The notes under the pieces were generated by a model. The model was not told the DNA's origin. It searched no databases and saw nothing but the letters and a program-made list of their open reading frames with translations. A program made the translations under genes and the position numbers. Below are positions 1,556 through 62,031 of a stretch of DNA of 64,000 bases, piece after piece; positions within the stretch are counted from its first letter, which is position 1, and the number at the start of each line of letters is the position of its first letter. The DNA lies in the NCBI GenBank assembly GCA_963831745.1, contig CAWHRD010000002.1:275603-339602 (forward strand), in the 5' to 3' direction. This DNA is from an uncultured Chloroflexia bacterium. Lineage in GTDB: Bacteria > Chloroflexota > Limnocylindria > Limnocylindrales > CSP1-4.

Positions 1556-1758
1556 GGGACCCCAAGCGGGAGCGGTTCGCTGCGAGTGCGGGAGCCTCCT
1601 CCCGCCGGGCAGCGTACGTCGCGGGCGGCCGGGGGTGCTCCCCCCGTTGGGAGGATGTCGCCGGCCGAAGTGGGCGGGTAGGCTCGCGGGCAGTACCGGC
1701 GTCCGTGGTCCGGCGCGCGCCGCGGCAGTGACGTCCACCGGGAGGCTCTCACCACCCC

Positions 1759-3168
1759 ATGACAACCACCGACCGCGCCTCGCAGGCTCAGCAGCCCGCC
1801 GACGTCCTCGTGATCTTCGGCATCACCGGCGACCTGGCGAGGGTGATGACCTTCCGCTCGCTGTACCGCCTCGAGCGGCGCGGCCTGCTCGCCTGCCCGA
1901 TCGTCGGCGTCGCGTCCCGCGACTGGACGATCGAGCAGCTCGTGGAGCGAGCCCGCGACTCCATCGTGGGGACCGGCGAGCCGCTCGACGAGGCGATCTT
2001 CGCCCGTCTCGCCGCACGTCTCTCATACGTGAGCGGCGACCTCAAGGACCCGGCGACCTACGAGCGGGTCCGGACCGCGATCGGCAGCGCCACGAGCCCC
2101 GTGCACTACCTGGAGATCCCACCGTTCCTCTTCGCGACCGTCGTGCAGGGCCTCGCGGGCGCTGGCCTCACGACGAACGCCCGGGTCATCGTGGAGAAGC
2201 CGTTCGGCCACGACCTGGCGTCGGCGCGCGCCCTGGCCGAGGAGCTGCACCGCCACCTCGACGAGTCGCAGATCTACCGGATCGACCACTACCTCGGGAA
2301 GATGGGCCTCGAGGAGATCCTCTACCTGCGCTTCGCGAACACGATGCTCGAGCCGGTCTGGAACCGCAACTTCATCGCGTCCGTGCAGATCACCCTGGCC
2401 GAGGACTTCGGCGTCGAGATGCGCGGCCGCTTCTACGATCCGGTCGGCGCCCTGCGCGACGTCGTCGTCAACCACCTCATGCAGGTCGTCGCGATGGCCG
2501 CGATGGAGGCGCCCGCCGGCGGCGACCCGGAGACCCTCCGCACCGCGATTACGACGGTCTTCAAGTCGATCAGGACGGCCGATCCGGCCAGGTACGTCCG
2601 CGGCCAGTACGCCGGGTACCGCTCGATCGACGGGGTCGACCCGGCCTCGACAATCGAGACGTATGCCGCCCTGGCGCTGGAGGTCGAGAACTGGCGCTGG
2701 TCCGGCGTCCCCTTCCTCATCCGGACGGGCAAGCGCCTCCCGGTGACCCAGACGGAGCTGCGGCTCGTGTTCAAGGAGTCGCCGCGGCTCGGCTTCGGCA
2801 TCCGCGGAGAGCACAACCAGCCCGACCAGCTCGTGATCAGGCTCGACCCCTCGACCGGCGTTCAGGTCCTCCTCAACGCCCAGCGGGCAGACGCCCCGAC
2901 GCCCGACGTCGTGCCGCTCGACGTGACGTTCGCGGAGGCCGGCGGTGAGGGCGCGACGCCGTATGAGGTCCTGCTGCAGGCCGCCATGGAGGGGCGGAGC
3001 GCCCGCTTCGCCCGCCAGGACGGCATCGAGGAAGCGTGGCGCGTCTTCGGTCCCCTCATCGAGACACCCCCACCGATCCTGCCCTACGCCCCGGGCTCCT
3101 GGGGGCCCGAGGAAGCGAGCTCGCTCGCCGCCGACCACGGCGGCTGGCGCGATCCGTGGATCGAGTGA
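1759..3168 (+). CDS. zwf: Glucose-6-phosphate 1-dehydrogenase
   Basis: 469 aa. Dinucleotide-binding motif FGITGDLA and G6PD signature [17 protein letters not shown] about 12 nt upstream. Confidence 0.9.
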
Positions 3169-3250
3169 GACCGCCAACCGTGCTCCCCGCACGCCGGATG
3201 CAACGCCGTCGCGTCCGGCCCAGCCATCGAACCGGAAGTGAGGTCACCGA

Positions 3251-4936
3251 ATGAAGGTCGTCATCGTCGGCGGGGTCGCCGGCGGCGCCTCCTGTGCGGC
3301 GCGTCTGCGGCGGCTCGACGAGAGCGCCGAGATCATCGTCGTGGAGCGCGGGCCGTACATCTCGTACGCCAACTGCGGCCTTCCGTACTACGTGGGCGGG
3401 CTGATCCCGCGCGAGTCCAAGCTCGTGCTCGCGGACGCGGCGCTGTTCCGCGCGCAGCTCAACGTCGAGGTCCGCACGCTGTGCGAGGCGGTTTCGATCA
3501 ACCCGCAGGCGAAGACCGTCCAGCTCCGTGACGTCGCGACCGGCGAGGTGACCACCGAGTCGTACGACAGGCTGGTCCTCTCGCCCGGTGCCGTGCCGAT
3601 CTGGCCGGCCCTGCCCGGGATCGACCTCCCGGGGATCTTCAAGGTTCGGACGGTCCCCGACGTCCACGTCATCCGCGAGTGGATGGAGGGCCACGTCACC
3701 GATCCGTCCGGGCTCGACACGTACACCGGGACCCAGACCGTTCTGCCCGCGCGGCGCGCGGTCGTGGTCGGCGGCGGCTTCATCGGGCTGGAGATGGCCG
3801 AGAACCTGGCCCACCTCGGCCTCGACGTCACCCTCGTCCAGCGCGGCCCGCAGCTCATGTCGCCAATGGACCCGGAGATGGCCCGCTACGTCGAGCGTCA
3901 CGTGGCGCGCAACGGCGTCAAGCTGGCGCTCAGCGAGAACGTGACGGGCTTCCGCCAGGCGACCGAATCGTCGCTCGAGGTGCTCACCGCGTCGGGCAAG
4001 GCCATCCCGGCCGACATCGTGGTGATGGGCATCGGCGTTCGGCCCGAGGTCGCGCTGGCGAAGACGGCCGGCCTGGCGATCGGCGAGCGCGGCGGCATCC
4101 TCGTCGACGACCGGATGCGCACGAGCGCCCCCGACATCTTGGCCGTGGGCGACGCCATCGAGGTCCGGGACCACGTCACCGGCGACCAGTCGCACGTGCC
4201 GCTGGCGGGTCCGGCCAACCGCCAGGGCCGGATCGCCGCCGAGGTCATCGCCGGGCGCGATTCGCGCTTCCGGGGCACCCAGGGAACGGCGATCATCGGC
4301 GTGTTCGGCGGCGCGGCCGCCTGGACGGGCGCCAGCGAGAAGACGCTGCGCCGGATCGGCGACACGGACTACGAGAAGGTCTACCTCTACCCGAACTCGC
4401 ACGCCGGGTACTACCCCGGTGCGCAGTACCTGGCGATGAAGATCCTCTTCCGGAAGTCCGACGGGCGGCTCCTGGGGGCCCAGGCCGTCGGCCTCGACGG
4501 CGTGGACAAGCGGATCGACGCGTTCGCGATGGCCCTCCAGTTCGGGGCCACGGTCTACGACCTCGAGGAGGCGGAGCTCACCTACGCGCCCCAGTTCGGG
4601 AGCGCCAAGTCGCCGGTCAACTTCGCCGGGATGGTCGCCGCCGACGTCCTCCGCGGCGACATGCCGGTGGCCCACTGGGACGACGAGCACCCGTTCCTCC
4701 TCGACGTCCGCCAGCCGGCCGAGCTGGCCGTCGAGCAGGTGCCGGGCGTGGTGAACATTCCCCTCCCCGAGCTGCGGGCACGTCTCGACGAGCTGCCGCG
4801 CGACCGGGAGATCCACGTCATCTGCCGGTCCGGCCAGCGGGCCTACTACGCGACGAGGATCCTGCTGCAGAACGGCTTCGCGGCCCGCAACATCTCGGGG
4901 GGGATGCTGTCGCACGCGACGCTCTCCGCCGGGTGA
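3251..4936 (+). CDS. CoA-disulfide reductase-type FAD oxidoreductase with C-terminal rhodanese domain
   Basis: 561 aa. N-terminal VVIVGGVAGGASCA FAD fold, redox Cys in SYANCGLPYY, second Rossmann VVVGGGFIGLE, C-terminal rhodanese loop ICRSGQRA. Confidence 0.85.
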   Translation: MKVVIVGGVAGGASCAARLRRLDESAEIIVVERGPYISYANCGLPYYVGGLIPRESKLVLADAALFRAQLNVEVRTLCEAVSINPQAKTVQLRDVATGEVTTESYDRLVLSPGAVPIWPALPGIDLPGIFKVRTVPDVHVIREWMEGHVTDPSGLDTYTGTQTVLPARRAVVVGGGFIGLEMAENLAHLGLDVTLVQRGPQLMSPMDPEMARYVERHVARNGVKLALSENVTGFRQATESSLEVLTASGKAIPADIVVMGIGVRPEVALAKTAGLAIGERGGILVDDRMRTSAPDILAVGDAIEVRDHVTGDQSHVPLAGPANRQGRIAAEVIAGRDSRFRGTQGTAIIGVFGGAAAWTGASEKTLRRIGDTDYEKVYLYPNSHAGYYPGAQYLAMKILFRKSDGRLLGAQAVGLDGVDKRIDAFAMALQFGATVYDLEEAELTYAPQFGSAKSPVNFAGMVAADVLRGDMPVAHWDDEHPFLLDVRQPAELAVEQVPGVVNIPLPELRARLDELPRDREIHVICRSGQRAYYATRILLQNGFAARNISGGMLSHATLSAG

Positions 4937-6157: not shown

Positions 6158-6234
6158 GGTGGCCTTAGCTCAATCGGCAGAGCATCGGATTGTGGCTCCG
6201 AAGGTTACGGGTTCAAGCCCCGTAGGCCACCCCA
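6158..6234 (+). tRNA. tRNA-His (anticodon GTG) with encoded G-1 and CCA
   Basis: Hand-folded cloverleaf. G-1, acceptor GTGGCCT/AGGCCAC, D arm GCTC..GAGC, anticodon arm TCGGA-TTGTGGC-TCCGA (GTG at 6192-6194), T arm ACGGG-TTCAAGC-CCCGT, discriminator C, CCA at 6232-6234. Confidence 0.93.
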
Positions 6235-6451
6235 CCACTCCGCACGGACGACCGGCATGGAGCGGCGCTCAGCGGCAGGGAGCGGCACCGAGATTGCTAC
6301 AGAGACTGCTACAAAGCGCGCGGCGACGGCTACTCGGTCGCTCGGTGCTCCCCGGCGGCGCGGCCCACAATGCCTAGTCATGAACGTCGTCGCGCTGAAC
6401 GTCTGCCACGCAGGTCGCGACCGGGCAGACGCGGTTGCGGCAGCGATCCTC

Positions 6452-6495
6452 GTCCCATCCTCCGAGGAGAGCGGAGCGCCCGGTGCGGAGCCGGG
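6452..6495 (+). repeat. R2 interspersed repeat, copy a
   Basis: GTCCCATCCTCCGAGGAGAGCGGAGCGCCCGGTGCGGAGCCGGG, nearly identical to the copy at 7006-7049. Terminal hairpin GCCCGG-TGCGGAG-CCGGGC. Confidence 0.8.
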
Positions 6496-6497
6496 CT

Positions 6498-6839
6498 TTA
6501 GTCCTTCGCCGCCGCCTTCTGGAAGGCGGCCAGGAAGACCTTCCAGCCGGCGTCGCTCAGGTAGGTGTGCGTGGAGCCCGGCATGACGTCGAGCGAGACG
6601 GGGTTCCCTTGAGCCTTGAGGACGGAGAACAGGAGCTCCTGCGACTCGCGGACGTCGAGGATGCCGTCGGTGAGCGCCCGTTCGCCTCGAGTGATGCTCG
6701 TGTCCGACGACCCGGGCGCCGACTACGACCGCCCACTGCCCGACCCGGAGGCCACTGACGCATTCTTCGCCCTGCGCGACCCGTCCGGGGTCCTGCGCCG
6801 GCCGACGAGGAGCCGCCCCGTCGGTAGGCTCGCGTTCAT
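6498..6839 (-). pseudogene. Remnant of lipoprotein esterase paralog (signal-peptide start fused to C-terminal ~60 codons, frame-broken)
   Basis: The minus strand starts MNASLPTGRLLVG (compare MREQQSMGRLFVG of 15067..16059). In another frame it ends ILDVRESQELLFSVLKAQGNPVSLDVMPGSTHTYLSDAGWKVFLAAFQKAAAKD*, matching the C-terminus of the 15067..16059 protein. The middle about 200 codons are missing. Confidence 0.7.
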
Positions 6840-6864
6840 CCCCCAACCCTCCTCGGGACGCCAT

Positions 6865-6939
6865 CGCGGGTCGGTCTCGCCAGTGGCTCCGCGCGGTCGG
6901 GGCGACCGGAGTGTGGACCGAGTGTCAGAGCCTCCCGCC
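6865..6939 (-). repeat. R1 structured leader-like element, copy a
   Basis: Reverse complement reads GGCGGGAGGCTCTGAC...CCGACCGCGCGGAGCCACTGGCGAGACCGACCCGCG. It ends 25 nt upstream of the pseudogene start at 6839. Confidence 0.8.
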
Positions 6940-7005
6940 AACTGCTGATCGTGGGCGGCGGACGGGCACCTGACGAGGGTCGAACGGCCCCCTGACGCCC
7001 GGCGC

Positions 7006-7049
7006 GACCCATCCTCCGAGGAGAGCGGAGCGCCCGGTGCGGAGCCGGG
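7006..7049 (+). repeat. R2 interspersed repeat, copy b
   Basis: GACCCATCCTCCGAGGAGAGCGGAGCGCCCGGTGCGGAGCCGGG. Together with R1a it forms a ~190-bp composite unit. Confidence 0.8.
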
Positions 7050-7194
7050 GGCGATCAGCGCGAGGACGGGGGACGTGTCGGAGGAATGCACGGCATGCGG
7101 GGATTGTCACCCGAGGGATCGGCCCTTGGTCAGGGCTCGGGCGGATCGCAGGTTTCGTGGCGCTGGGACAGCTCTGCCGTGCGGCGTGCCACCG

Positions 7195-7458: not shown

Positions 7459-7484
7459 CTCGTCACCTACGTCGAACGGCGCGG

Positions 7485-7557
7485 CGCGGTCGGTCTCGCC
7501 AGTGGCTCGGCGCGGTCCCGGCGGCCGGGTGTGGGCCGCGCGTCAGAGCCTCCCACC
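7485..7557 (-). repeat. R1 structured leader-like element, copy b
   Basis: Reverse complement GGTGGGAGGCTCTGACGCGCGGCCCACACCCGGCCGCCGGGACCGCGCCGAGCCACTGGCGAGACCGACCGCG. It ends 26 nt upstream of the ATG at 7458. Confidence 0.8.
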
Positions 7558-7596
7558 AACGTCAATTGTCCCACCGGCAGCAAGGGACTTGTCCAG

Positions 7597-7845
7597 ATGG
7601 ACCGCCCAGGTCATCGACTTCAACCTGCCCCAAGCCGTTGGCAAGGCTTCCGACTCACGCGCCGCAGGCTTCGTGGCTCGCCACGGGGAACTGGTACAGG
7701 TCGAGTTGGACGCGTTGCCACCGGACGTCCTGCGCGACCTATTCGAGATCGCGCTCGCTGAGTTCTGGGACGAGTCCGCGTACCAGCGCTCGCTCGACCG
7801 GGAGAAGGCCGACCGCGAGCAGTTGTTCGAGGTTGGGGATGACGG
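7597..7845 (+). pseudogene. Orphan coding-like fragment (no start codon), unknown family
   Basis: This frame of ORF 7037..8092 reads ...GFVARHGELVQVELDALPPDVLRDLFEIALAEFWDESAYQRSLDREKADREQLFEV. The composition is protein-like, unlike the flanking Arg-rich text. It collides head-on with the truncated esterase copy at about 7850. Confidence 0.25.
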
Positions 7846-8215
7846 CGGCCTGAGAGTTGACCGCCAGTTGTCCGTCGTACGTGAACTCCCAGGCGCCCCC
7901 TCCGGGCACGTGGCCCCAGTCCGGTACGAACACGACGAACCCGAGGTCCGCGACCTTTCGAGCGTGGTCACGGTAGTCAGACTTCGTCGAGACGCCGCTT
8001 GGTGCGCCGTGGAACATCACGACCACCGGCCACGGCCCGGCCGTGGCCGGCGCATAGACGTCGAGCACGCCCGGCAACAGCAGCGGGTTTGACAATTCGT
8101 AGGCGATGTCGCTGATCTTGGTCACGCTCGGCGTGGCGCCGGCAGCGCAGCCACCCACCAGGAACATGACGACCAGGCCGACGAGGAGCCGGCCAGTCGT
8201 TGGGTGCTCGCGCAT
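7739..8215 (-). pseudogene. Truncated lipoprotein esterase paralog (N-terminal ~125 codons only)
   Basis: MREHPTTGRLLVGLVVMFLVGGCAAGATPSVTK...VVVMFHGAP...ARKVADLGFVVF..WGHVPGG is collinear with 15067..16059. Similarity stops at about residue 125, before the GHSGG nucleophile, where the orphan fragment begins. Confidence 0.65.
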
Positions 8216-8238
8216 CCTTCGTCCCCCCGGACGTCAAT

Positions 8239-8311
8239 CGCGGGTCGGTCTCGCCAGTGGCTCGGCGCGGTCCCGGCGGCCTGAGTGTGGGCCGCGTGTC
8301 AGAGCCTCCCG
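8239..8311 (-). repeat. R1 structured leader-like element, copy c
   Basis: Reverse complement CGGGAGGCTCTGACACGCGGCCCACACTCAGGCCGCCGGGACCGCGCCGAGCCACTGGCGAGACCGACCCGCG. It ends 23 nt upstream of the ATG at 8215. Confidence 0.8.
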
Positions 8312-8365
8312 TCAGCCGCTCACCGTAGGCGCGTGCCGGGCATCTGGCGAGAGGCGAACGGCCCG

Positions 8366-30350: not shown

Positions 30351-30595
30351 CCCACATGCCGCGTCGTGCGGCCGGATGCCGCCCTGCGGAGTGGCCCCGA
30401 CGGGCCGATCAGCCCAGGGCCCGAGGCCTACCCCGGCACGGCACTCCGCCCGGGTGCACCAGACCGTCCGGAACGTTGCGACGGGGTGCTACGATCGATC
30501 CGCCCCGAGCCGGCACCTCGTACGGGGCCCGTCCGCGCCGCTTGGCGGCCGTGATGCAAGGGCCCACGATGCCCCGACCGGAGAAGGAGACGCGC

Positions 30596-31702
<1,107 letters not shown>

Positions 31703-48912: not shown

Positions 48913-50151
48913 ATGACCCGGCTTGATGACGGCCTCCTCGCCGCGCTCACGGACCGCGGCGTCTCGCGCCGCGCCTTCCTGAAGTTCTGCGCGGCCATGA
49001 CCGCGACCCTGGCGCTCCCGGCGACGTACGCCCCCCGGATCGCCGCCGCGGTCGTCGCGGCTCCCCGCCTCCCCGTCATCTGGCTGCGGGGCCAGACGTG
49101 CTCGGGGAACACGGCCGCCTTCCTGCGGGCCTCCGACCCGACGACGGCCGACCTGCTCATCGATCTCCTGTCGGTCGAGTACCACGAGACGCTCATGGCC
49201 GCCGCCGGCCCCGCCGCCGCGCGCTCGCTGACCGACACGCTCGAGACGTACCCCAACGGCTACCTCGCGGTCGTCGAGGGCGGCATCCCCACGGCCGAGG
49301 ACGGGATCCACTGCCTCGTCGGTGGGCGCCCGTTCCGCGAGATCGTCCGCGAGGTGTGCGCGGGCGCGAGCGCGACAATCGGGGTGGGCTCGTGCGCGTT
49401 CGACGGCGGAACGCCGGCCGCCGCGGGCGGCGTCACCGGTGCCGTCGGCGTGGGCGGGGTCGCGTCGGGCGGCCAGCTGATCAGCCTGCCCGGCTGCCCC
49501 CTCAACGTCGACAACCTGGCGGCGACGATCGTCCACTACCTGACCTTCAAGCGGCTCCCGCCCGCCGACATGCGGGGCCGCCCGCTGTTCGCGTACGGCG
49601 GCCTGATCCACAACCAGTGCGAGCGACGCGCGGCGTTCGAGTTCGGCCAGTTCGCCACGTCCTGGGGCGACGAGGGCGCCCAGAAGGGCTGGTGCCTCTA
49701 CAAGATGGGCTGCAAGGGCCCCGAGGTCTACGCCAACTGCCCCACCCAGAAGTACGCCGAGGGGACGAGCTGGGCGGTCCGCGCGGGCCACGGCTGCATC
49801 GGCTGCACGATGCCGGACTTCTGGGATTCGATGGGCCCGGCCTACGCCCGCCTCCCGGGACCGGTTCCCTTCTTCCCCAACATCACGGTCGACCAGGTGG
49901 GCGCGGCCCTCGTCGGCGGGATCGCCGCCGTCACCGTCGTCCACGGCAGCGCCACCGTCGTGCGGAGCCGCCGCGGGGGCTCGGCCGCGCACCACGGCGG
50001 CGGCCAGCCCGTGGTCGAGCCGCTCCTCGAGGCCCCGGGCGTGCCGGCGCCGGAGCCGGTGGCGGATCAACCGCCGGCGCCGCCGGCGCCGGAGCCGGTG
50101 GCGGATCAACCGCCGGCGCCGCCGTCCGTCGGGCTGGGTGGTCCCGCGTGA
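48913..50151 (+). CDS. [NiFe] hydrogenase small subunit, Tat-exported, with C-terminal TM anchor and Pro-rich tail
   Basis: Twin-arginine signal GVSRRAFLKF. FeS ligand motifs GSCAFDGG, PGCPLN, HNQCERR, GWCLYKMGCKGP, ANCP, GHGCIGC. The first CxxC reads C-S-G-N. TM segment VGAALVGGIAAVTVV. Confidence 0.9.
   Translation: MTRLDDGLLAALTDRGVSRRAFLKFCAAMTATLALPATYAPRIAAAVVAAPRLPVIWLRGQTCSGNTAAFLRASDPTTADLLIDLLSVEYHETLMAAAGPAAARSLTDTLETYPNGYLAVVEGGIPTAEDGIHCLVGGRPFREIVREVCAGASATIGVGSCAFDGGTPAAAGGVTGAVGVGGVASGGQLISLPGCPLNVDNLAATIVHYLTFKRLPPADMRGRPLFAYGGLIHNQCERRAAFEFGQFATSWGDEGAQKGWCLYKMGCKGPEVYANCPTQKYAEGTSWAVRAGHGCIGCTMPDFWDSMGPAYARLPGPVPFFPNITVDQVGAALVGGIAAVTVVHGSATVVRSRRGGSAAHHGGGQPVVEPLLEAPGVPAPEPVADQPPAPPAPEPVADQPPAPPSVGLGGPA
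50044..50121 (+). repeat. Perfect 39-bp tandem duplication inside the small-subunit tail
   Basis: CCGGCGCCGGAGCCGGTGGCGGATCAACCGCCGGCGCCG occurs twice (50044-50082 and 50083-50121), encoding PAPEPVADQPPAP twice. Confidence 0.9.
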
Positions 50152-51920
50152 GCCGCACGGTGATCGACCCCGTCACGCGCGTGGGGGGTCATCTCCGCAT
50201 CGAGGTCGAGGTGGCCGGCGGCGCCGTGGCCGACGCCTGGAGCTCGGGGACGATGTTCCGGGGCATGGAAACCATCCTGCGCGGACGCGACCCGCGCGAC
50301 GCGTGGCTGCTCGCGCAGCGCGTGTGCGGGACCTGCAACGGCGTACACGCGCTGGGCTCCGTCCGGGCCGTGGAGAGTGCGCTCGGCCTGACCGTGCCGC
50401 GGAACGCCCGCCTGGTCCGGAACCTCCTTGCCGGGACGCAGCTCGTCGCCGACCACGTCGTCCACTTCTACCACCTGCAGGCCCTCGACTGGGTGGACGT
50501 GATGGCGGCGCTGCGCGCGGCGCCCGCCGCGACCGCGAGCCTGGCGGCCTCGCTCAGCGACTGGCCCCAGTCGAGCGCGACCTACTTCCGCGAGGTGCAG
50601 GACCGCCTGGCGGCGATGGTGGCCTCGCGCCAGCTGGGACCCTTCGCCAATGGGGACTGGGGCCATCCCGCGTACACGCTGACGCCGGAGGCCGACCTCC
50701 TGCTCCTGGCCCACGCCCTCGAGGCGCTCGACTGGCAGCGCCGCTTCATGCGCATCCATACGCTCCTCGGCGGCAAGAGCCCGCACCCGCAGACCTTCCT
50801 CGTCGGCGGCATGGCGCTGGCGCCCGAGTGGGGCGGCCCGAACCGCGCGCTGCCGGGCGAGCACCCCCAGCAGATCGAGCGCAACGCGCCGCTCGCTCTC
50901 GGAGAGCGCGGGCTGGCGGTGATCGCCGAGCTCGTGGCGGAGGCGCGGGTGTTCGTCGAGCGCGTCTACCTCCCCGATGCGCTACTCCTCGCCCGGGAGT
51001 ACCCCGAGTGGTCCCGCGTCGGAGCCGGCATCGGGTCGTACCTGGCCTTCGGCGAGTTCCCCGAGGATGACTCCCAGGCGCCCGTGCTCCTCCTCCCGCG
51101 CGGTCGGGTGACGCGGGCGCTCGCGAGCGTCGAGCCGGTCGAGCACACCGGCGTCGGCGAGACCGTGGTCTCCTCGCACTACACGTACGCCAACGGGGAC
51201 GCGGCCCTGCTGCACCCCTGGGACGGCGAGACCAGCCAGCGCTACGGCGGCCCTCCTCCCCCGGTCGAGACGCTCGAGGGCGCCGCCAAGTACAGCTGGC
51301 TCAAGGCGCCGCGCTACGCGGACCAGCCGATGGAGGTCGGGCCGCTGGCCCGCGTCCTGGTGGGGTACGTCGAGGCGCGGGACGTGATCCGTCGGCTGGT
51401 CAACGATCTCGTCGGCTCGCTCGGGACGGGGCGTGACGCCCTCTTCAGCACGATGGGCCGGACCCTCGCCCGGGCGGTCGAGACGCAGGTCGTCGTGGAC
51501 CGGCTCGCGGCGTGGCAGGGCGAGCTCAGCGCGAACCTGGCGACCGGCGACGTGGCGGTGACCAACGTCACGGCCTGGGATCCCGGGTCCTGGCCGGCCG
51601 TGGCACGGGGCTGGTCCTTCGGGGAGTCGCCCCGCGGCGCGGTCGGCCACTGGGTCACGATCGAGGACCGCCGGGTGTCCGAGTACCAGATCGTCGACGC
51701 GACGACGTGGAACGGGTCGCCGCGGGACGCCACGGGGCGCCGGGGCGCCATCGAGGAGGCGCTCGTCGGGACGCCCGTCGCCGACCCCGCGCGGCCGCTG
51801 GAGGTCCTGCGGACGGTCCACTCGTTCGACCCCTGCACCGCGTGCGCGGTGCACGCCCATCGTCCGGTCGGCATCCCCGCGGGCATCGACGTCCGGGTCG
51901 CCCGGGGAGGCGCGCGATGA
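50148..51920 (+). CDS. [NiFe] hydrogenase large subunit (group 1-like)
   Basis: GTG start overlaps the small-subunit stop (GTGA). N-terminal RVCGTCNGVH and C-terminal DPCTACAVH Ni-Fe ligand motifs, followed by a ~20-aa cleavable extension. The RxEGH motif reads RVGGH. Confidence 0.9.
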   Translation: MSRTVIDPVTRVGGHLRIEVEVAGGAVADAWSSGTMFRGMETILRGRDPRDAWLLAQRVCGTCNGVHALGSVRAVESALGLTVPRNARLVRNLLAGTQLVADHVVHFYHLQALDWVDVMAALRAAPAATASLAASLSDWPQSSATYFREVQDRLAAMVASRQLGPFANGDWGHPAYTLTPEADLLLLAHALEALDWQRRFMRIHTLLGGKSPHPQTFLVGGMALAPEWGGPNRALPGEHPQQIERNAPLALGERGLAVIAELVAEARVFVERVYLPDALLLAREYPEWSRVGAGIGSYLAFGEFPEDDSQAPVLLLPRGRVTRALASVEPVEHTGVGETVVSSHYTYANGDAALLHPWDGETSQRYGGPPPPVETLEGAAKYSWLKAPRYADQPMEVGPLARVLVGYVEARDVIRRLVNDLVGSLGTGRDALFSTMGRTLARAVETQVVVDRLAAWQGELSANLATGDVAVTNVTAWDPGSWPAVARGWSFGESPRGAVGHWVTIEDRRVSEYQIVDATTWNGSPRDATGRRGAIEEALVGTPVADPARPLEVLRTVHSFDPCTACAVHAHRPVGIPAGIDVRVARGGAR

Positions 51921-52654
51921 CCGCCATCGGCGAGCCGCTCCAGGGCGTGTCTGCGCGCCGACCCGAGGAGCGCGTCCGGCTGTACGTCTGGCAGGTGCCC
52001 GTCCGGATCACTCACTGGCTGACGGCGGGCTGCATCGTCGTGCTGAGCGTGACCGGCGGCTACATCGCCGACCCGTTCCTCATCCCCCCGGGTGGCTCGG
52101 TGATGACCACCGTCCGCATGGTCCACATGCTGACCGCCTTCGCGTTCCTCGTCTCCGGCCTCATCCGGACCTACTGGCTGCTCGCCGGCAACCGCTTCTC
52201 GCGCTGGTCGGCGTTCATCCCGATGTCGCGCTACCAGGCCACCGAGCTGTTCCGCCAGGCCGCCTTCTACGCCTTCATCCGGAGGGAGATCCCGAAGGTC
52301 CTCGGCCACAACCAGCTGGCGGCGACCGCCTACCTCGTGCTCTTCTTCCTGCTGCTCGTCGAGACGGTGACCGGCTTCGCCCTCGACGGCCTCATCGGGT
52401 CCGAGCCGGGCGCCTCGGCGTTCGCCTGGCTCCGCGAGCTCCTGGGAACGCAGAACGTGCGGCTGATCCACCACCTCGCGATGTGGGCGATCCTCGCCAT
52501 CGCGCTGTTCCACGTCTACAGCTGCATCCTCGTGGACCACATCGAGAAGAACGGCCTCGTCTCGAGCATCGTCAGCGGCTACAAGTTCCCCACGATCGAG
52601 GAGGTCGTCGAGTCGCGCGACGGCGGGCCCGAGCTGCTGGAGCGGGTCGAATGA
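51917..52654 (+). CDS. Ni/Fe-hydrogenase b-type cytochrome subunit (HyaC/CybH-like)
   Basis: ATGA overlap with the large subunit. 4 TM with conserved His (RITHWL, RMVHMLT, IHHLAMW, LFHVY). Confidence 0.85.
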   Translation: MTAIGEPLQGVSARRPEERVRLYVWQVPVRITHWLTAGCIVVLSVTGGYIADPFLIPPGGSVMTTVRMVHMLTAFAFLVSGLIRTYWLLAGNRFSRWSAFIPMSRYQATELFRQAAFYAFIRREIPKVLGHNQLAATAYLVLFFLLLVETVTGFALDGLIGSEPGASAFAWLRELLGTQNVRLIHHLAMWAILAIALFHVYSCILVDHIEKNGLVSSIVSGYKFPTIEEVVESRDGGPELLERVE

Positions 52655-53196
52655 CGAGAGGCGACGGGTCGCCCGTGGTGATCGGGATCGGCAACCTGCT
52701 CCTGGGCGACGACGGGATCGGCGTGCACGTCGTCCGCGCGCTCCGCGACATGGCCGCGCGCGGCGAGGTGACGCTCCCGGCAGGGACGCGGCTCGTCGAC
52801 GGCGGCACCCTGACCCTCGGCCTGCTCGACGAGATGGATGGAGCCCGGGCCCTCGTCCTCGTCGACGCCGTCGACCTCGGCGCCGAGCCCGGCACGGTCG
52901 TGGCGATCCGGGGCGACGCGCTCCGGCGGGCGGCGGACGCGTACGGGCCCCCGCGCGCGGGGCTGGCCGGGCTGCTGGCCGCCGCGGAGCTGGCCGGGAC
53001 GCTGCCGGACGACGTCGTGCTCGTCGGGATCCAGCCCAATCGGCTCGACGTCGGCCTCGCGCCGACCGACGCCGTCTGGGACGCGCTCCCGGCGGCCGTC
53101 GAGGCCACGCTCGCCGAGCTCCGTCGAGCCGCGCCCACCGGCGCGCGGCGGGTTCCCGCCGGCCACCGACACATCGCGATGGGAGCACCCGCATGA
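52651..53196 (+). CDS. Hydrogenase maturation endopeptidase (HyaD/HybD family)
   Basis: ATGA overlap. VVIGIGNLLLGDDGIGVHVV, LVDGGT, VLVDAV motifs. Confidence 0.85.
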   Translation: MTRGDGSPVVIGIGNLLLGDDGIGVHVVRALRDMAARGEVTLPAGTRLVDGGTLTLGLLDEMDGARALVLVDAVDLGAEPGTVVAIRGDALRRAADAYGPPRAGLAGLLAAAELAGTLPDDVVLVGIQPNRLDVGLAPTDAVWDALPAAVEATLAELRRAAPTGARRVPAGHRHIAMGAPA

Positions 53197-53933
53197 AGGG
53201 CATGGACCGCCTGATCAAGCTCCTCATCGTCCTCAACTTCGTCGTCGTGGCCTGCCTGCTCGGCGCGGTCGTCGTCTTCTCCGCGCAGCGGGCCCCGGCG
53301 GGCCACCCGGACCAGGCCGTGGCGACGCCGACGCCGTCCGGCTCGCCCGAGATGATGGACATGGGCCTGGCCCACATCCCGACCAGCAACAGCTGCATCC
53401 TGTGCCACGAGACCGGCGGCTCCGCGGGCCTCAAGCCGGTGCCGGCCATCGGCCACCCGATCGAGGGCTGGGGCCGCTGCACGGTCTGCCACACCGGCGA
53501 GCGCCTGGGGCGGAACGCGCCCGGGCACGAGGGGATCCCCGAGGAAGAGTGCCTCAACTGCCACAAGCCGCCGCCCGCGGGCCCGTCGATCACGCAGCCC
53601 CACTCGCGGTTCCAGGACCAGCAGTGCCTGGACTGCCACGGCAGCTACGCGCACCTGCCGTCGAGCATGGTCGGGCGCAACCAGGACGAGTGCTGGCTGT
53701 GTCACAAGCCCACCGCGTCGCCGCCGCCCGAGTACCCGCACCCGGCCAACATCCCCCAGTCCTGCCGGAGCTGCCACGTCGCCGAGGAGGCCGGGAACCT
53801 GCCGATCGACCACGCCCTCCGGGCCGACAACACCTGCCTCCTGTGCCACGACATCAAGACCGCGGCCAGCCCGCCGGCGTCGCTCCCCACCCCGGCTCCG
53901 ACGGCCGCACCGGCGGGGGTCGCGAACCCCTGA
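53193..53933 (+). CDS. Membrane-anchored heptahaem c-type cytochrome
   Basis: ATGA overlap with the protease gene. N-terminal TM LIKLLIVLNFVVVACLLGAVVVF. Seven CxxCH motifs (CILCH, CTVCH, CLNCH, CLDCH, CWLCH, CRSCH, CLLCH). Confidence 0.85.
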   Translation: MKGMDRLIKLLIVLNFVVVACLLGAVVVFSAQRAPAGHPDQAVATPTPSGSPEMMDMGLAHIPTSNSCILCHETGGSAGLKPVPAIGHPIEGWGRCTVCHTGERLGRNAPGHEGIPEEECLNCHKPPPAGPSITQPHSRFQDQQCLDCHGSYAHLPSSMVGRNQDECWLCHKPTASPPPEYPHPANIPQSCRSCHVAEEAGNLPIDHALRADNTCLLCHDIKTAASPPASLPTPAPTAAPAGVANP

Positions 53934-54014
53934 CGGATCGGCGTCCGGGGCGCCGCGATCATCGATCGCCGCCCCGGGGACGGCGGGCCGCCGGGTGGCG
54001 CGCGCCGGGCTAGA

Positions 54015-54503
54015 ATGCCGCGCATGACCGGAGACATCGCCGCCCAGGTCCAGCAGGCATGGGCCAGCTTCCTCGAGTTCCTGGCGAAGATCCTGTCCCC
54101 GGACTGGGGCGCGCTCGTGCTCCTCATCCCGCTCGCTCTCCTGCCGCTCGTGCTGCTCTTCCTCCTCGCCATGACCGGGCGGTGGACCATCTACGGGATC
54201 ACCAAGCCGCGGGCCAAGGTCCGCTGGGTGGAGGGGGCGCGGCCGCTCGAGCTCGACGCCGGCGGAGCGCCGGTCCCGCCGATCGGCCTGCCCTTCTCGC
54301 TGCGCACCGGGCTGGTCTACCCGCCCGCGGTCGTGCGCACCGACGACGGCGAGGACCTCGCGGTCATCTGCCCCATGTGCCGCGTCGAGCGCCTGGCCCA
54401 GGTCACGGTGTGCGGGAACTGCGGCCTGGTCCTGAACGTCAGGCGGGGGATCACGGTGGCCCGGCCGGCCGGGCCACCGCCGGGCGGCGCCGCGGTCGCC
54501 TGA
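54015..54503 (+). CDS. Membrane protein with C-terminal zinc ribbon
   Basis: TM segment WGALVLLIPLALLPLVLLFLLAM, then CPMCRVERLAQVTVCGNCG (CxxC-x11-CxxC). Confidence 0.55.
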   Translation: MPRMTGDIAAQVQQAWASFLEFLAKILSPDWGALVLLIPLALLPLVLLFLLAMTGRWTIYGITKPRAKVRWVEGARPLELDAGGAPVPPIGLPFSLRTGLVYPPAVVRTDDGEDLAVICPMCRVERLAQVTVCGNCGLVLNVRRGITVARPAGPPPGGAAVA

Positions 54504-54537
54504 CCGGGCACCGCTTCACGCCGGGGGGGCAGTCCGC

Positions 54538-55494
54538 ATGGCAGTCGCGTCCTTCTACCTCTACGTTGTCGCCGGGCTCCTGCTCGTGGGGGCCTTCGCG
54601 GCCCACGTCGCGCACGCCACGCTGCTCGCCACCGGCCGCCGCCTGGCCGTCTCGCTGGCTCCCCGGCCGAGCCCGGCCTTCGCCGGGGCCGTCGGCGGCA
54701 GCTTCGCGGCGGAGGTCGCCGCCACGCCGCCGGACGGCACGGGGGCCGGACCCCGCAGCGCCGCTGCGCCGTTCGCGATCGGCCTGGCCTGGGCGGCCGC
54801 CGTCACCCTGGGCCTGGCGCTGCTGACGCGTGGGATCGTGGTGGGTCGCGGCCCCTGGGGCAACCTCTTCGAGTTCACGGTCGCCTTCGCCTTCGGGACC
54901 ATCGCCGGCTACCTCGTGCTCGAGCGGCGCTACCCCATCCGCGCGATCGGGTTCCTCCCGCTGGGCGTCGCGCTCGGCCTGGTCCTCTTCAGCTGGACGC
55001 TGCCGAAGGAGATCGAGGCACTCGTCCCCGCGCTGCAGAACCCGCCCCTCCTGACGATCCACGTCGGGCTCGCGATGCTGAGCTACGGGATCCTCGCGAT
55101 GAGCTTCGCGGCCGGGCTGGCGTACCTGGTCCAGGAGCAGCGCCTGGCGGACGGGCGCGTCGTGGACCGGTTCGGGTGGCTGCCGTCGCGCGACGTCCTC
55201 GACGCCGTGGCCTATCGCGCGGTGATCGTCGGGTTCCCGGTCTTCGCCACGATGATCGTCCTGGGCAGCTGGTGGGCCAGCATCGCCTGGTCGCGCTACT
55301 GGGGCTGGGACCCGAAGGAGACCAGCGCGCTCGTCACGTGGCTCGTCTACGCCGTCTACCTGCACCTCCGGAACCAGCGCGGGTGGCGCGGCAGGCCGGC
55401 CGCGCTGGTCCTGGTGGTCGGGTTCGCGATGGTGCTCGTGACCTACTCCGGCAACCTCTGGTTCCCCGGCCTCCACAGCTACAGCGGGCTGTAG
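54538..55494 (+). CDS. ccsA: Cytochrome c biogenesis protein CcsA/ResC (System II haem handling)
   Basis: Trp-rich WWD-type motif WSRYWGWDPKETSALVTWLVYAVYLH. Multi-TM. Confidence 0.85.
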   Translation: MAVASFYLYVVAGLLLVGAFAAHVAHATLLATGRRLAVSLAPRPSPAFAGAVGGSFAAEVAATPPDGTGAGPRSAAAPFAIGLAWAAAVTLGLALLTRGIVVGRGPWGNLFEFTVAFAFGTIAGYLVLERRYPIRAIGFLPLGVALGLVLFSWTLPKEIEALVPALQNPPLLTIHVGLAMLSYGILAMSFAAGLAYLVQEQRLADGRVVDRFGWLPSRDVLDAVAYRAVIVGFPVFATMIVLGSWWASIAWSRYWGWDPKETSALVTWLVYAVYLHLRNQRGWRGRPAALVLVVGFAMVLVTYSGNLWFPGLHSYSGL

Positions 55495-58452: not shown

Positions 58453-58469
58453 CACAACATCTAGTTGTG
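58453..58469. promoter_or_regulatory. NrdR box 1
   Basis: CACAAC-ATCTA-GTTGTG palindrome resembling the NrdR operator consensus (acaCwAtATaTwGtgt). Confidence 0.75.
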
Positions 58470-58484
58470 CGGGGTGCCGAAGGA

Positions 58485-58500
58485 CCACAAGATGTTGTGG
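58485..58500. promoter_or_regulatory. NrdR box 2
   Basis: CCACAAGATGTTGTGG. Centre-to-centre distance to box 1 is about 31.5 bp, the characteristic tandem NrdR-box spacing. Confidence 0.75.
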
Positions 58501-58507
58501 TTTGGCG

Positions 58508-58536
58508 TTGACTCGACCCCCGTCGCGCGGTACAGT
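58508..58536 (+). promoter_or_regulatory. Sigma-70-type promoter of nrdJ
   Basis: TTGACT, 17-nt spacer, TACAGT. Lies directly downstream of NrdR box 2, about 280 nt upstream of the ATG at 58816. Confidence 0.65.
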
Positions 58537-58815
58537 ACGGGGACCGCCTTCGACCGGGCAGACCGGCTCCGGGACCACCCCGGAGCGATCGCCAGACCGG
58601 ACCCGGCGGGGGCATCACTCGGCGCCGCGGAGCCCCCAGGAGGCGACGGCGCAGCTACACCGGAGACGGCGGGACGGGCGATGCCCGGCGCACGCCGGCC
58701 GGGGAGCGGACGGATGGAGAGGCGGGCGGACCGCCACGAGCACCACCCGGCTCACGACGCCGGGGGCAGGGACCGGGCCGGCGAGCCGTCGGGCCGGAAG
58801 AGGAGCACGCGCAGC

Positions 58816-61800
58816 ATGGCTCGAGCCGTACACGACATCGTCCCGGCCGTCCCCCAGGACGCCAAGCCCGCGAAGGCGCGCGGCCGGCGGGCCGGCGGGG
58901 CCGCTTCCCCGGCCCGCGCCGCCGGCGCCGTGCCGGCCGGCAGCGCCGAGGCCGTCGCGGCACGGACGAACGCCGCCTTCGCCGAGGCCGAGGCCCTCCG
59001 GGCCCGCGCCGAGCAGGCGGCGGCTGCTGCCATGGACGCGCTCCACTTCACCGGCGAGGGGACCCGCGGCCTCACGCTCGAGCGGCGCTGGACCCGCCCC
59101 GACGTCCATCCGTACGACGAGATCGCCTGGGAGATCCGCACCGCCGCCATCGGCAACGAGTCGGGCAAGCTCGTCTTCGAGCAGAAGGACGTCGAGGTCC
59201 CGGCGTCCTGGAGCCAGCTGGCCACGAACGTGGTCGTCAGCAAGTACTTCCGCGGCCACCTCAACACCCCGGAGCGCGAGACCAGCGTCCGCCAGCTCAT
59301 CGACCGGGTCGTCCTGACGATCAGCGCCTGGGGCGAGACCCAGCGCTACTTCGCCACGCCCGAGGACCTCGCCACGTTCAAGGCCGAGCTGACCCACCTG
59401 CTCGTGAACCAGAAGATGAGCTTCAACTCGCCGGTCTGGTTCAACGTCGGCATCGAGGCCCGGCCGCAGTGCTCGGCCTGCTTCATCAACTCCGTGCAGG
59501 ACTCCATGACCAGCATCATGGACCTGGCCAAGACGGAAGCGATGCTATTCAAGTACGGCTCCGGTGCGGGCTCCAACCTCTCGACGATCCGCTCGTCGCG
59601 CGAGAAGATGGCCGGCGGGGGCACGGCCTCCGGCCCGGTCAGCTTCATGAAGGGCTACGACGCCTTCGCCGGCGTCGTGAAGTCGGGCGGCAAGACCCGC
59701 CGCGCCGCCAAGATGGTCATCCTCGACGTCGACCATCCCGACATCCTCGACTTCATCGACAGCAAGAAGCTCGAGGAGCAGAAGGCCTGGGCCCTCATCG
59801 AGGAGGGCTACGACGCGTCCTTCACCGGCGAGGCCTACGGCAGCGTCTTCTTCCAGAACGCCAACCACTCCGTCCGCGTCACCGACGAGTTCATGCGGGC
59901 GGTCGAGAACGACGGCGCCTGGACGACCCACGCGATCGTCGGCGGCGCGCCGATGGACACCCACCGGGCCCGCGACATCTTCCGCCGCATGGCCGACGCG
60001 GCCCACCTGTGCGGCGACCCGGGGATCCAGTACGACACCACGATCAACGCGTGGCACACCAGCGCCAACAGCGATCGGATCCACGCGTCGAACCCGTGCT
60101 CCGAGTACATGTTCCTCAACGACACGGCGTGCAACCTCGCCAGCCTCAACCTCATGCGGTTCGTCCGCGAGGATGGCGAGTTCGACGTCGACGGGTTCCG
60201 CTACGCGGCGCGCCTCACGATCACGGCCCAGGAGATCCTCGTCGACAACGCGAGCTACCCGACGCCGAAGATCGAGGAGAACAGCCACCGCTTCCGGCCG
60301 CTCGGCCTGGGCTTTGCCAACCTCGGCGCCCTCCTCATGAGCCGCGGCCTGGCCTATGATTCCGACGAGGGTCGGGCCTACGCGGCGGCGATCACCGCCC
60401 TGATGCACGGGGAGGCCTACCGCCAGAGCGCCGTCATCGCCCGCGACCACGGCGGCCCGTTCATCGAGTACGCGAGGAACCGCGAGCCGTTCCTCGCGGT
60501 CATCGACAAGCACCGCGCCGCGGCGTACCAGCTCCCGGAGGAGAACGTCCCGTCCGACATGGTGGCCGGCGCCCACGCCGTCTTCGACGAGGCGCTCGCC
60601 CTCGGCACCCAGCACGGCTACCGGAACGCCCAGGTCACCGTGCTCGCGCCCACGGGCACGATCGCCTTCATGATGGATTGCGACACCACCGGCATCGAGC
60701 CGGACATCGCCCTCGTCAAGTACAAGAAGCTCGTCGGCGAGGGCTACCTCAAGATCGTCAACAACACGGTCCCCGGCGCCCTCCGGCGGCTCGGCTACAC
60801 GCCGACCCAGGTCGAGGAGATCGTCGCCTACATCGACGATCGCGAGACGATCGAGGGCGCCCCGGGGCTCCTGCCCGAGCACCTGAGCGTCTTCGACTGC
60901 GCCTTCAAGCCGCGCAACGGCGTCCGGTCGATCAGCCCGATGGGCCACGTCCGGATGATGGCCGCGGTGCAGCCGTTCCTCTCCGGCGCGATCAGCAAGA
61001 CCGTCAACATGCCCGAGGCGGCGACGGTCGAGGAGATCGAGCAGATCTACCTCGAGGGCTGGAAGCTCGGCCTCAAGGCCATCGCGATCTATCGCGACAA
61101 CAGCAAGCGGAGCCAGCCGCTCAGCACGTCGAAGCTCAAGAGCGACGACGAGACGAAGGCGGTCGGCGAGCTTGTCGGCGAGCTGCGCAAGCAGCTGGCG
61201 ACGGCCCAGGCCGAGGCGCTCAAGCCACACCGCCGCCGGCTCCCCTCCGAGCGGACCGCGGTCACCCACAAGTTCGACATCGCCGGCCACGAGGGCTACA
61301 TCACGGTCGGGCTCTACCCGGACGGCCAGCCGGGCGAGATCTTCCTCAAGATGGCCAAGGAGGGGTCCACGGTCTCGGGCCTCATGGACACCTACGCCAC
61401 CGCCATCAGCCTGGCCCTGCAGTACGGCGTGCCCCTGCGCGACCTCGTCAACAAGTTCGCCCACGTCCGGTTCGAGCCGTCCGGCTTCACCGGCAACAGC
61501 GAGATCCCGATCGCGAAGTCGATCGTGGACTACATCTTCCGCTGGCTCGGCAGCCGCTTCCTCGCGGGCGACGACCGGGCGGCGCTCGGGATCCAGGAGC
61601 GGGGCGGGTCCGTCGTCGCCGCACCGTTCTCGTTCGCGGGCGGAGCCTACGCCCCCGAACGCGAGGAGGGCCCGCTCGGCGTCGACGAGGCGAACGAGCC
61701 GCCCTCCCCGACGGCCACCGCGGTCGCCACGGCCACCGGCCGGGGCTCCAGCCCGGCGACCGGCCAGGCGGCCCCGCCGGCCGCCTCGGCGAAGGTCGGC

Positions 61801-62031
61801 CTGCCGGTCGTGGAGCCCGCCGGGAACGGGCGCGCGAAGGGCAACGGCAACGGGAACGGCAACGGGAAGGGGGCGGCGGCGACCGCCATCGCGGCCTCGC
61901 TCGGAGCCGAACGCACCGCCTTCAAGATCCAGGAGGACGCCCCGTCCTGCATGGACTGCGGCTCGATCATGGTCCGCAACGGCAGCTGCTACAAGTGCCT
62001 CAACTGCGGCTCCACGAGCGGCTGCAGCTGA
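58816..62031 (+). CDS. nrdJ: Adenosylcobalamin-dependent (class II) ribonucleotide reductase, long form with C-terminal zinc ribbon
   Basis: GLTLERRWTRPDVHPYDEIAWE, VVSKYFRG, NPCSEY (catalytic Cys), TGIEPD, and a C-terminal CMDCGS...CYKCLNCG. A (GN)4 hexanucleotide repeat lies at 61840-61866. Start at 58816 (GAGGAG RBS, high GC3 downstream); the ATG at 59031 is an alternative. Confidence 0.9.
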   Translation: MARAVHDIVPAVPQDAKPAKARGRRAGGAASPARAAGAVPAGSAEAVAARTNAAFAEAEALRARAEQAAAAAMDALHFTGEGTRGLTLERRWTRPDVHPYDEIAWEIRTAAIGNESGKLVFEQKDVEVPASWSQLATNVVVSKYFRGHLNTPERETSVRQLIDRVVLTISAWGETQRYFATPEDLATFKAELTHLLVNQKMSFNSPVWFNVGIEARPQCSACFINSVQDSMTSIMDLAKTEAMLFKYGSGAGSNLSTIRSSREKMAGGGTASGPVSFMKGYDAFAGVVKSGGKTRRAAKMVILDVDHPDILDFIDSKKLEEQKAWALIEEGYDASFTGEAYGSVFFQNANHSVRVTDEFMRAVENDGAWTTHAIVGGAPMDTHRARDIFRRMADAAHLCGDPGIQYDTTINAWHTSANSDRIHASNPCSEYMFLNDTACNLASLNLMRFVREDGEFDVDGFRYAARLTITAQEILVDNASYPTPKIEENSHRFRPLGLGFANLGALLMSRGLAYDSDEGRAYAAAITALMHGEAYRQSAVIARDHGGPFIEYARNREPFLAVIDKHRAAAYQLPEENVPSDMVAGAHAVFDEALALGTQHGYRNAQVTVLAPTGTIAFMMDCDTTGIEPDIALVKYKKLVGEGYLKIVNNTVPGALRRLGYTPTQVEEIVAYIDDRETIEGAPGLLPEHLSVFDCAFKPRNGVRSISPMGHVRMMAAVQPFLSGAISKTVNMPEAATVEEIEQIYLEGWKLGLKAIAIYRDNSKRSQPLSTSKLKSDDETKAVGELVGELRKQLATAQAEALKPHRRRLPSERTAVTHKFDIAGHEGYITVGLYPDGQPGEIFLKMAKEGSTVSGLMDTYATAISLALQYGVPLRDLVNKFAHVRFEPSGFTGNSEIPIAKSIVDYIFRWLGSRFLAGDDRAALGIQERGGSVVAAPFSFAGGAYAPEREEGPLGVDEANEPPSPTATAVATATGRGSSPATGQAAPPAASAKVGLPVVEPAGNGRAKGNGNGNGNGKGAAATAIAASLGAERTAFKIQEDAPSCMDCGSIMVRNGSCYKCLNCGSTSGCS

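Follow-up and report, generated by a model that had tools for sequence, protein, structure and literature searches.

An uptake [NiFe]-hydrogenase operon of Limnocylindrales (Chloroflexota) that ends in a gene for a membrane-anchored heptahaem cytochrome c

Background

Among the described [NiFe]-hydrogenases of group 1, the closest to the system reported here are E. coli Hyd-1 (HyaABCD, group 1d), the group 1f enzymes of Frankia, and the soluble periplasmic group 1a/1b enzymes of Desulfovibrio, to which bis-His-type multihaem cytochromes c (c3 or HmcA) are tied on the external face of the membrane. One of the two Frankia versions of the group 1f synton-3 is arranged in the order hupS-hupL-hupC-hupD-hypA (PMC11879354), and group 1f is listed in HydDB as 'oxygen-protecting', its role being unresolved (PMC5037454). 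Multihaem cytochromes also occur in the alternative complex III (ACIII; ActA/ActC), Qrc and Nrf modules, in which the membrane partner is NrfD. MmcA, a heptahaem cytochrome c whose gene accompanies those of the Methanosarcina acetivorans Rnf complex, is reported to act in an intracellular route as well as in extracellular electron transfer (PMC10153276). The present work concerns a five-gene hydrogenase operon ending in a heptahaem cytochrome c gene, found in a 64,000-nucleotide stretch of DNA from an uncultured Chloroflexia bacterium of soil (GenBank assembly GCA_963831745.1, contig CAWHRD010000002.1, positions 275,603 to 339,602 of the forward strand), the whole of which is called the window below.

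The order Limnocylindrales belongs to the class Limnocylindria in the phylum Chloroflexota. Limnocylindria (Ellin6529, Edaphomicrobia) are reported to be abundant in soil and freshwater and to oxidise H2, and have no cultured representative. In a preprint the lineage was inferred to be monoderm, and cytochrome c terminal oxidases were found in nearly all of its genomes (10.1101/2021.08.23.457424). In a survey of Chloroflexi the only mention of this kind is of a '1f variant' in Anaerolineae that has an NrfD-like subunit. A preliminary description of the window, made from the letters alone, had proposed that an uptake-type hydrogenase is coupled in one operon to a multihaem cytochrome c, and this proposal is followed up here by profile searches, comparison of related loci, and structure prediction.

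Results and discussion

Gene content and coding signal of the operon

The five open reading frames (ORFs) of the operon are arranged as follows (coordinates of the window):

48913-50151, + strand: hydS, [NiFe] small subunit, 412 amino acids
50148-51920, + strand: hydL, [NiFe] large subunit, 590 amino acids
51917-52654, + strand: HyaC-type dihaem cytochrome b, membrane subunit, 245 amino acids
52651-53196, + strand: HyaD/HybD-type maturation endopeptidase, 181 amino acids
53193-53933, + strand: membrane-anchored heptahaem cytochrome c, 246 amino acids

They are chained by four 4-nt start/stop overlaps (GTGA at 50148; ATGA at 51917, 52651, and 53193), and the internal starts are preceded by purine-rich Shine-Dalgarno-like motifs. 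Third-position GC is 0.93-0.98 in every one of the five ORFs, which marks all of them as coding. The lengths and overlaps are as the preliminary description had given them, its five gene identities are upheld by motifs and by matches to Pfam and NCBIfam profiles at curated cut-offs (in brackets below), and its picture of a single, tightly coupled uptake-type operon stands.

The small subunit HydS matches TIGR00391 at 379 bits (cut-off 179.5). It carries a twin-arginine translocation (Tat) motif, SRRAFLK, at residues 18-24 (48964-48984; TIGR01409, 20.4 bits, cut-off 16.7) and a C-terminal transmembrane (TM) anchor (49897-49962) that aligns with the anchor of E. coli Hyd-1 and is followed by a Pro/Ala-rich tail. 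An exact 39-nt tandem duplication lies in this tail (50043-50120), where the peptide PAPEPVADQPPAP is encoded twice (50044-50121). The large subunit HydL (PF00374, 631 bits) has the two Ni-Fe ligand motifs RVCGTCNGVH (residues 58-67, 50319-50348) and DPCTACAVH (residues 561-569, 51828-51854), and continues for 21 amino acids past the final His of the latter; this C-terminal extension is the expected substrate of the endopeptidase (TIGR00072, 121.5 bits, cut-off 47.45). Cytochrome b (TIGR02125, 146 bits, cut-off 121.5) has the haem-ligand residues H33, H70, H185, and H199, which are invariant and are all found in E. coli HyaC as well. Judged by these motifs, the predicted gene set of a quinone-linked uptake hydrogenase is complete and its cofactor ligands are intact.

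The cytochrome c has an N-terminal TM helix (53211-53279), seven CxxCH motifs starting at residues 68, 96, 120, 145, 167, 191, and 215 (53394-53849), and a Pro/Ala/Thr-rich C-terminal tail. Seven further His residues (61, 88, 112, 137, 154, 183, and 207) are invariant across 52 homologues, which together with the seven CxxCH motifs is enough for seven bis-His haems.

A scan of the operon region (75% GC) found neither promoter nor terminator, and a repeat search around the cassette found no flanking repeats of the kind that would mark a mobile cassette. In agreement with the earlier statement for the window, a scan of roughly 47 called genes detected no member of the hyp or resB/ccsB families; the intervals of about 9-13 kb and 25-26.6 kb lay outside that scan.

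The Tat small subunit with its C-terminal TM anchor, both CxxC pairs of HydL, the four-His dihaem cytochrome b, the endopeptidase, and the gene order are shared with HyaABCD and with group 1f, but in neither of these does the operon end, as it does in the window, with a translationally coupled heptahaem cytochrome c gene. Unlike the Frankia synton-3 version with hypA, the window operon has no adjacent hyp genes. A bis-His-type multihaem cytochrome c tied to the hydrogenase on the external face of the membrane is a likeness to the Desulfovibrio systems; unlike c3 or HmcA, however, the window cytochrome is a seven-haem, membrane-anchored protein whose gene shares an operon with a cytochrome b gene, and the hydrogenase is itself membrane-anchored rather than soluble. 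A soluble 1a/1b enzyme working with c3 was ruled out by the cytochrome b gene, the TM anchor of HydS, and the TM helix of the cytochrome c. With MmcA the likeness is one of functional analogy only, i.e. a seven-haem cytochrome on a membrane energy-converting complex; the partner enzyme is a different one and MmcA belongs to another domain of life.

Linkage of the cytochrome gene to hydrogenase genes in relatives

Relatives of the heptahaem cytochrome were sought in a genome scan with one genome per species, using an alignment of closer homologues (A3), the more diverse alignment (A2) being too variable. The scan yielded 96 stretches encoding a relative, of which the best 80 loci, from 78 distinct assemblies, were kept. 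The set used for synteny consisted of 81 distinct loci (numbered with the prefix L below), and 62 of these have at least 4.6 kb of upstream sequence. In 61 of the 62, hydS, hydL, and the cytochrome b gene lie upstream of the cytochrome c gene on the same strand. A protease gene stands between the genes for cytochromes b and c in 48 of the 61 syntenic loci and is missing at that position in the other 13, in some of which (e.g. L004 and L005) the two cytochrome genes abut. Exactly seven CxxCH motifs are present in 85 of 86 copies of the cytochrome, and 59 of the 86 copies overlap the upstream gene, whether protease or cytochrome b, by 4 nt. The median identity to the window proteins is 61% for cytochrome c, 59% for HydL, and 77% for cytochrome b, the highest in the operon.

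The heptahaem gene is the conserved last gene of the hydrogenase operon, and its retention beside hydrogenase genes in relatives agrees with the coupling first proposed from the window alone. Since the genes flanking the hydrogenase-cytochrome cassette vary between loci, the linkage of the cassette is more than local collinearity; and the conservation of seven motifs, seven His residues, and the 4-nt overlap over about 80 related loci is more than chance. The explanation that the cytochrome gene merely keeps its place beside the operon and serves a function that has nothing to do with hydrogen is hardly credible to us in view of a position kept in 61 of 62 loci while HydL across the linked loci diverges down to 44% tblastn best-segment identity, and in view of the changing flanks and the conserved overlap. 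In its favour are the single locus in which a heptahaem gene has no hydrogenase genes (L052, discussed below) and the example of ccsA, also discussed below, where adjacency in the window can mislead.

The best 80 loci are all titled as Chloroflexota metagenome-assembled genomes (MAGs), many of them Limnocylindrales, except for a 3-kb contig in a 'Dermatophilaceae' bin, which is probably misbinned. Those heptahaem and HydL homologues whose source is named also come from Chloroflexota or Limnocylindrales MAGs, with the exception of one 'Sulfomarinibacteraceae' record. The earlier remark that the genome looks like that of a high-GC Gram-positive was therefore wrong as to phylum, the MAGs of the relatives being Chloroflexota and not Actinobacteria.

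A side observation was made in L002. Immediately 5' of its heptahaem-linked operon stands a gene set (654-4591) that resembles a group 4 membrane hydrogenase or complex I, with genes for Proton_antipo_M, a 30-kDa/49-kDa fusion subunit of NiFe type, a ferredoxin, and a 20-kDa subunit.

Phylogeny and assignment of the hydrogenase

In a neighbour-joining tree of HydL rooted on E. coli Hyd-2, the cytochrome-linked HydL proteins form a single clade, whose sister consists of three cytochrome-free loci (L007, L090, and L091). E. coli Hyd-1 falls outside both clades, its HyaB being 45% identical to the window HydL. The sister-clade HydL proteins are about 569 amino acids long and 62-64% identical to that of the window, and their operons are arranged as hydS-hydL-cytochrome b-protease, with hypA/hypC genes following or flanking them (L007 has additional hyp genes) and with no cytochrome c gene. 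Compared by description, this layout and the subunit sizes match Frankia group 1f (PMC11879354). The window enzyme is probably a derivative of HydDB group 1f, as judged indirectly by the layout, sizes, and motif of the sister clade.

The proximal-cluster motif of HydS is CSGN (residues 63-66, 49099-49110) where standard enzymes have CxGC, i.e. Asn stands at the second standard Cys position and Gly at the extra-Cys position. Across the relatives the second Cys position is occupied by Asn in 40, Asp in 11, Glu in 8, and Ser in 1, and the cytochrome-free sister clade has the same variant, so that CxG[N/D/E] is found in both clades. The motif points to a proximal cluster with three Cys ligands and one Asn, Asp, or Glu, and not to the six-Cys cluster of group 1d. 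Assignment to group 1d was rejected on this motif. The proximal [4Fe-3S] cluster of that group has six cysteines, from CxCC and one more Cys; both extra Cys are missing in the window protein, and its second standard Cys is replaced by Asn (in relatives also by Asp or Glu).

The variant cluster bears on a second explanation for the cytochrome, in which the seven haems would be an electron reservoir that feeds the active site upon O2 attack and so confers O2 tolerance without the six-cysteine cluster of group 1d. It would fit the listing of group 1f as 'oxygen-protecting' (PMC5037454), the Asn/Asp/Glu residue at the second ligand position, and the near-universal cytochrome c terminal oxidases of the lineage (10.1101/2021.08.23.457424). 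Yet the sister clade, with the same variant proximal cluster, manages without the cytochrome, we found no precedent for such a reservoir, and the proposal is purely inferential; we therefore consider it decidedly unlikely.

Kinship of the heptahaem cytochrome

The window cytochrome has the CxxCH motifs and distal His residues of class III/multihaem cytochromes c and passes the cut-offs of generic multihaem models only (PF09699, 39.1 bits, cut-off 20.6; PF14522, 36 bits, cut-off 24.8). None of the specific Pfam and NCBIfam families took it in, and the cut-offs of the HmcA, DmsE, NrfH, and NrfB equivalogs were all missed widely. Two of these were considered as identities and rejected, i.e. the 16-haem HmcA equivalog (NF045713, 14.6 bits against a cut-off of 400) and the NapC/NrfH/CymA-type quinol dehydrogenase (TIGR03153, 18.8 bits against a cut-off of 134.2).

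A profile built from 17 diverse homologues was compared with solved structures. The best match, over the whole haem domain, is the 16-haem HmcA of Desulfovibrio (PDB 1gws, E 2e-12), followed by MtrA, MtrC/F, NrfB, and ACIII ActA, the last a weak match. The MtrA entry is 6r2q chain A, which we take to be MtrA, though the molecule name given for that chain in the table differs. By this profile comparison the cytochrome domain is homologous to multihaem cytochromes of electron transfer such as HmcA, MtrA, and NrfB. The earlier view that a multihaem partner in the style of sulfate reducers has here been joined to a cytochrome b fits with HmcA as the best solved-structure match.

An exhaustive cluster search gave only 27 matches below E 1e-30 among 1.84 billion cluster representatives. 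They include giant multihaem proteins with the module in up to 32 copies, as well as octahaem relatives of about 40% identity with an eighth CxxCH. Three octahaem relatives (proteins P0270, P0260, and P0331) are genuine fusions to an NrfD-family membrane protein, and another lies directly 3' of an NrfD gene (L097, 1-1478), on contigs of only 2 kb; a metagenome scan with the NrfD-octahaem fusion gave two weak matches only. These fusions and this adjacency suggest that the cytochrome module habitually pairs with a quinone-interacting membrane subunit. The ACIII, Qrc, and Nrf modules are alike in this pairing with NrfD and, for ActA, in the weak profile match; they differ from the window operon, where a HyaC-type cytochrome b takes the place of NrfD as membrane partner, and where an ActB/QrcC-type iron-sulphur (FeS) subunit is lacking.

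Such pairing supports a third explanation, in which cytochrome b and the heptahaem cytochrome would together form a quinol:cytochrome c module. Electrons from H2 would go to quinone first, and the c haems would be fed by quinol or by the b haems, as in ACIII/Qrc/NrfH-type modules, and not by the FeS chain. The high conservation of cytochrome b (median 77%, against 59% for HydL) and the 13 loci in which no protease gene separates the cytochrome c gene from the preceding cytochrome b gene speak for it as well. Against it, the sister clade runs the same cytochrome b without any cytochrome c, the NrfH family match is far under its cut-off (18.8 against 134.2 bits), and no feature separates this route from direct transfer out of the FeS chain. 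We regard the quinol module as unlikely.

Three further entries in the public protein collection (P0274, P0249, and P0310), which read as fusions of cytochrome b or protease to cytochrome c and as such would have spoken for a physical association, were rejected as frameshifted translations of high-GC contigs because of their long Arg/Pro-rich wrong-frame stretches. Such entries could mislead surveys of domain architecture.

Proposed electron routes

In the reading that we favour, to which as a whole we give a rough probability of 0.55, the five genes are a single operon encoding an uptake [NiFe]-hydrogenase that is exported by Tat, bound to the membrane, and linked to a cytochrome b, and the cytochrome c is an extra subunit that would add a c-haem path beside the path through cytochrome b to quinone. 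A lineage specific to Limnocylindria would have added the heptahaem cytochrome as a fifth subunit (the fourth in some relatives), its one N-terminal helix keeping it at the outer face of the cytoplasmic membrane. H2 would be oxidised at the NiFe site, and the three FeS clusters of HydS would carry the electrons to the membrane surface, where they could take one of two routes, i.e. through the two b haems to menaquinone, as in Hyd-1-type enzymes, or through the seven bis-His c haems to c-type or extracellular acceptors on the extracytoplasmic face, bypassing the quinone pool.

Several findings weigh against this reading. No candidate acceptor is encoded in the window, where the neighbours are housekeeping genes. 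The AlphaFold2 model of the cytochrome, computed from a 52-sequence alignment, is poor (mean predicted local distance difference test score, pLDDT, 52.8), the N-terminal helix being its sole confident part (residues 1-30, pLDDT >90). In L052 (7995-8756), the sole related locus without hydrogenase genes 5' of the heptahaem gene, the upstream ORFs match no relevant family; a rearrangement or misassembly is possible there because the MAG is fragmented. The architecture was not found described in the literature on group 1f, on Limnocylindria/Ellin6529 hydrogenases, on multihaem-linked uptake hydrogenases, and on heptahaem cytochromes, in line with the preliminary description, which had called it unusual; this negative is no proof that the architecture is undescribed.

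A bolder form of the proposal is a hard-wired branch point that defines a new group 1 subgroup, in which the enzyme, besides reducing quinone, would let H2 electrons run straight down the seven-haem wire to acceptors beyond the cytoplasmic membrane such as a c-type pool, minerals, or humics, or in reverse; we hold this as tentative and rather doubtful. Operation in the reverse direction as the main role, with the cytochrome taking electrons from extracellular or periplasmic donors and passing them to the hydrogenase for H2 production or through cytochrome b to quinone, appears highly unlikely, because the operon is laid out as an uptake enzyme with a quinone-reducing cytochrome b and no donor system is encoded nearby, even though multihaem chains are reversible wires and physiological reversibility has been described for some group 1 enzymes (PMC5037454).

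If the heptahaem protein is a true subunit, as the favoured reading has it, the enzymes of this clade would be a subgroup uniting two electron exits, cytochrome b to quinone and multihaem c, which usually occur in separate enzymes. This would change how H2 oxidation is joined to respiratory chains in metabolic reconstructions of Limnocylindria, and the operon would offer a small, naturally occurring case of an enzyme with a haem chain wired to it. With its four to five genes, the conserved cassette is small enough for direct expression and testing.

The Zn-ribbon gene and ccsA

Two further genes follow the operon on the same strand:

54015-54503, + strand: Zn-ribbon membrane protein, 162 amino acids, with a hydrophobic stretch and a CxxC...CxxC pair
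54538-55494, + strand: ccsA, System II CcsA/ResC-type (TIGR03144, 203 bits, cut-off 187.6)

The Zn-ribbon protein has no Pfam or NCBIfam match. It has 1064 homologues, more than the cytochrome c, and those listed are at least 57% identical. Its gene (znr) lies immediately 5' of ccsA in the window and in every relative where it was seen (14 loci), with or without hydrogenase, and no resB/ccsB was found beside it in those 14 loci. This association suggests a possible role for the protein as a partner, specific to the lineage, of the System II haem lyase.

L094, L095, and L096 have the backbone of the window around znr-ccsA with no hydrogenase inserted, the order being Peptidase_A24, M17, a gene of unknown function, epimerase, HAD hydrolase, saccharopine dehydrogenase (optional), znr-ccsA, and class II ribonucleotide reductase. 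Within 2.5 kb downstream of the operon, ccsA is found in only 11 of 71 hydrogenase loci. Because the pair occurs in its backbone without hydrogenase and the linkage is so limited, ccsA is incidental to the operon: it is the lineage's general core-genome haem lyase component, adjacent by chance of the insertion site, and only in this lineage does the cassette border it. The preliminary description was right about the position and strand of the two genes and about System II, but their membership in the hydrogenase unit is contradicted by the 11 of 71 count and by L094-L096.

Other features of the window

Three c-di-GMP-II-GAG riboswitch aptamers (RF03169, 62-74 bits, gathering threshold 40) are located on the - strand within 1.5 kb, each 5' of a short - strand ORF:

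6860-6944, - strand: c-di-GMP-II-GAG aptamer
7479-7562, - strand: c-di-GMP-II-GAG aptamer
8234-8318, - strand: c-di-GMP-II-GAG aptamer

One of the linked ORFs (7739-8215) has weak dienelactone-hydrolase and chlorophyllase matches; the other two (6205-6864 and 6723-7091) matched no family. A malK-III RNA (RF03009, 80 bits; 30506-30598, + strand) is present at the 5' end of a gene for a MalK-like ABC ATPase. The called start of this gene (30542) overlaps the RNA, and the true start is therefore probably further downstream. The class II (B12-dependent) ribonucleotide reductase at 58465-62031 is intein-free in the window, and that of L094 (8867-12489) carries an intein with a LAGLIDADG endonuclease domain.

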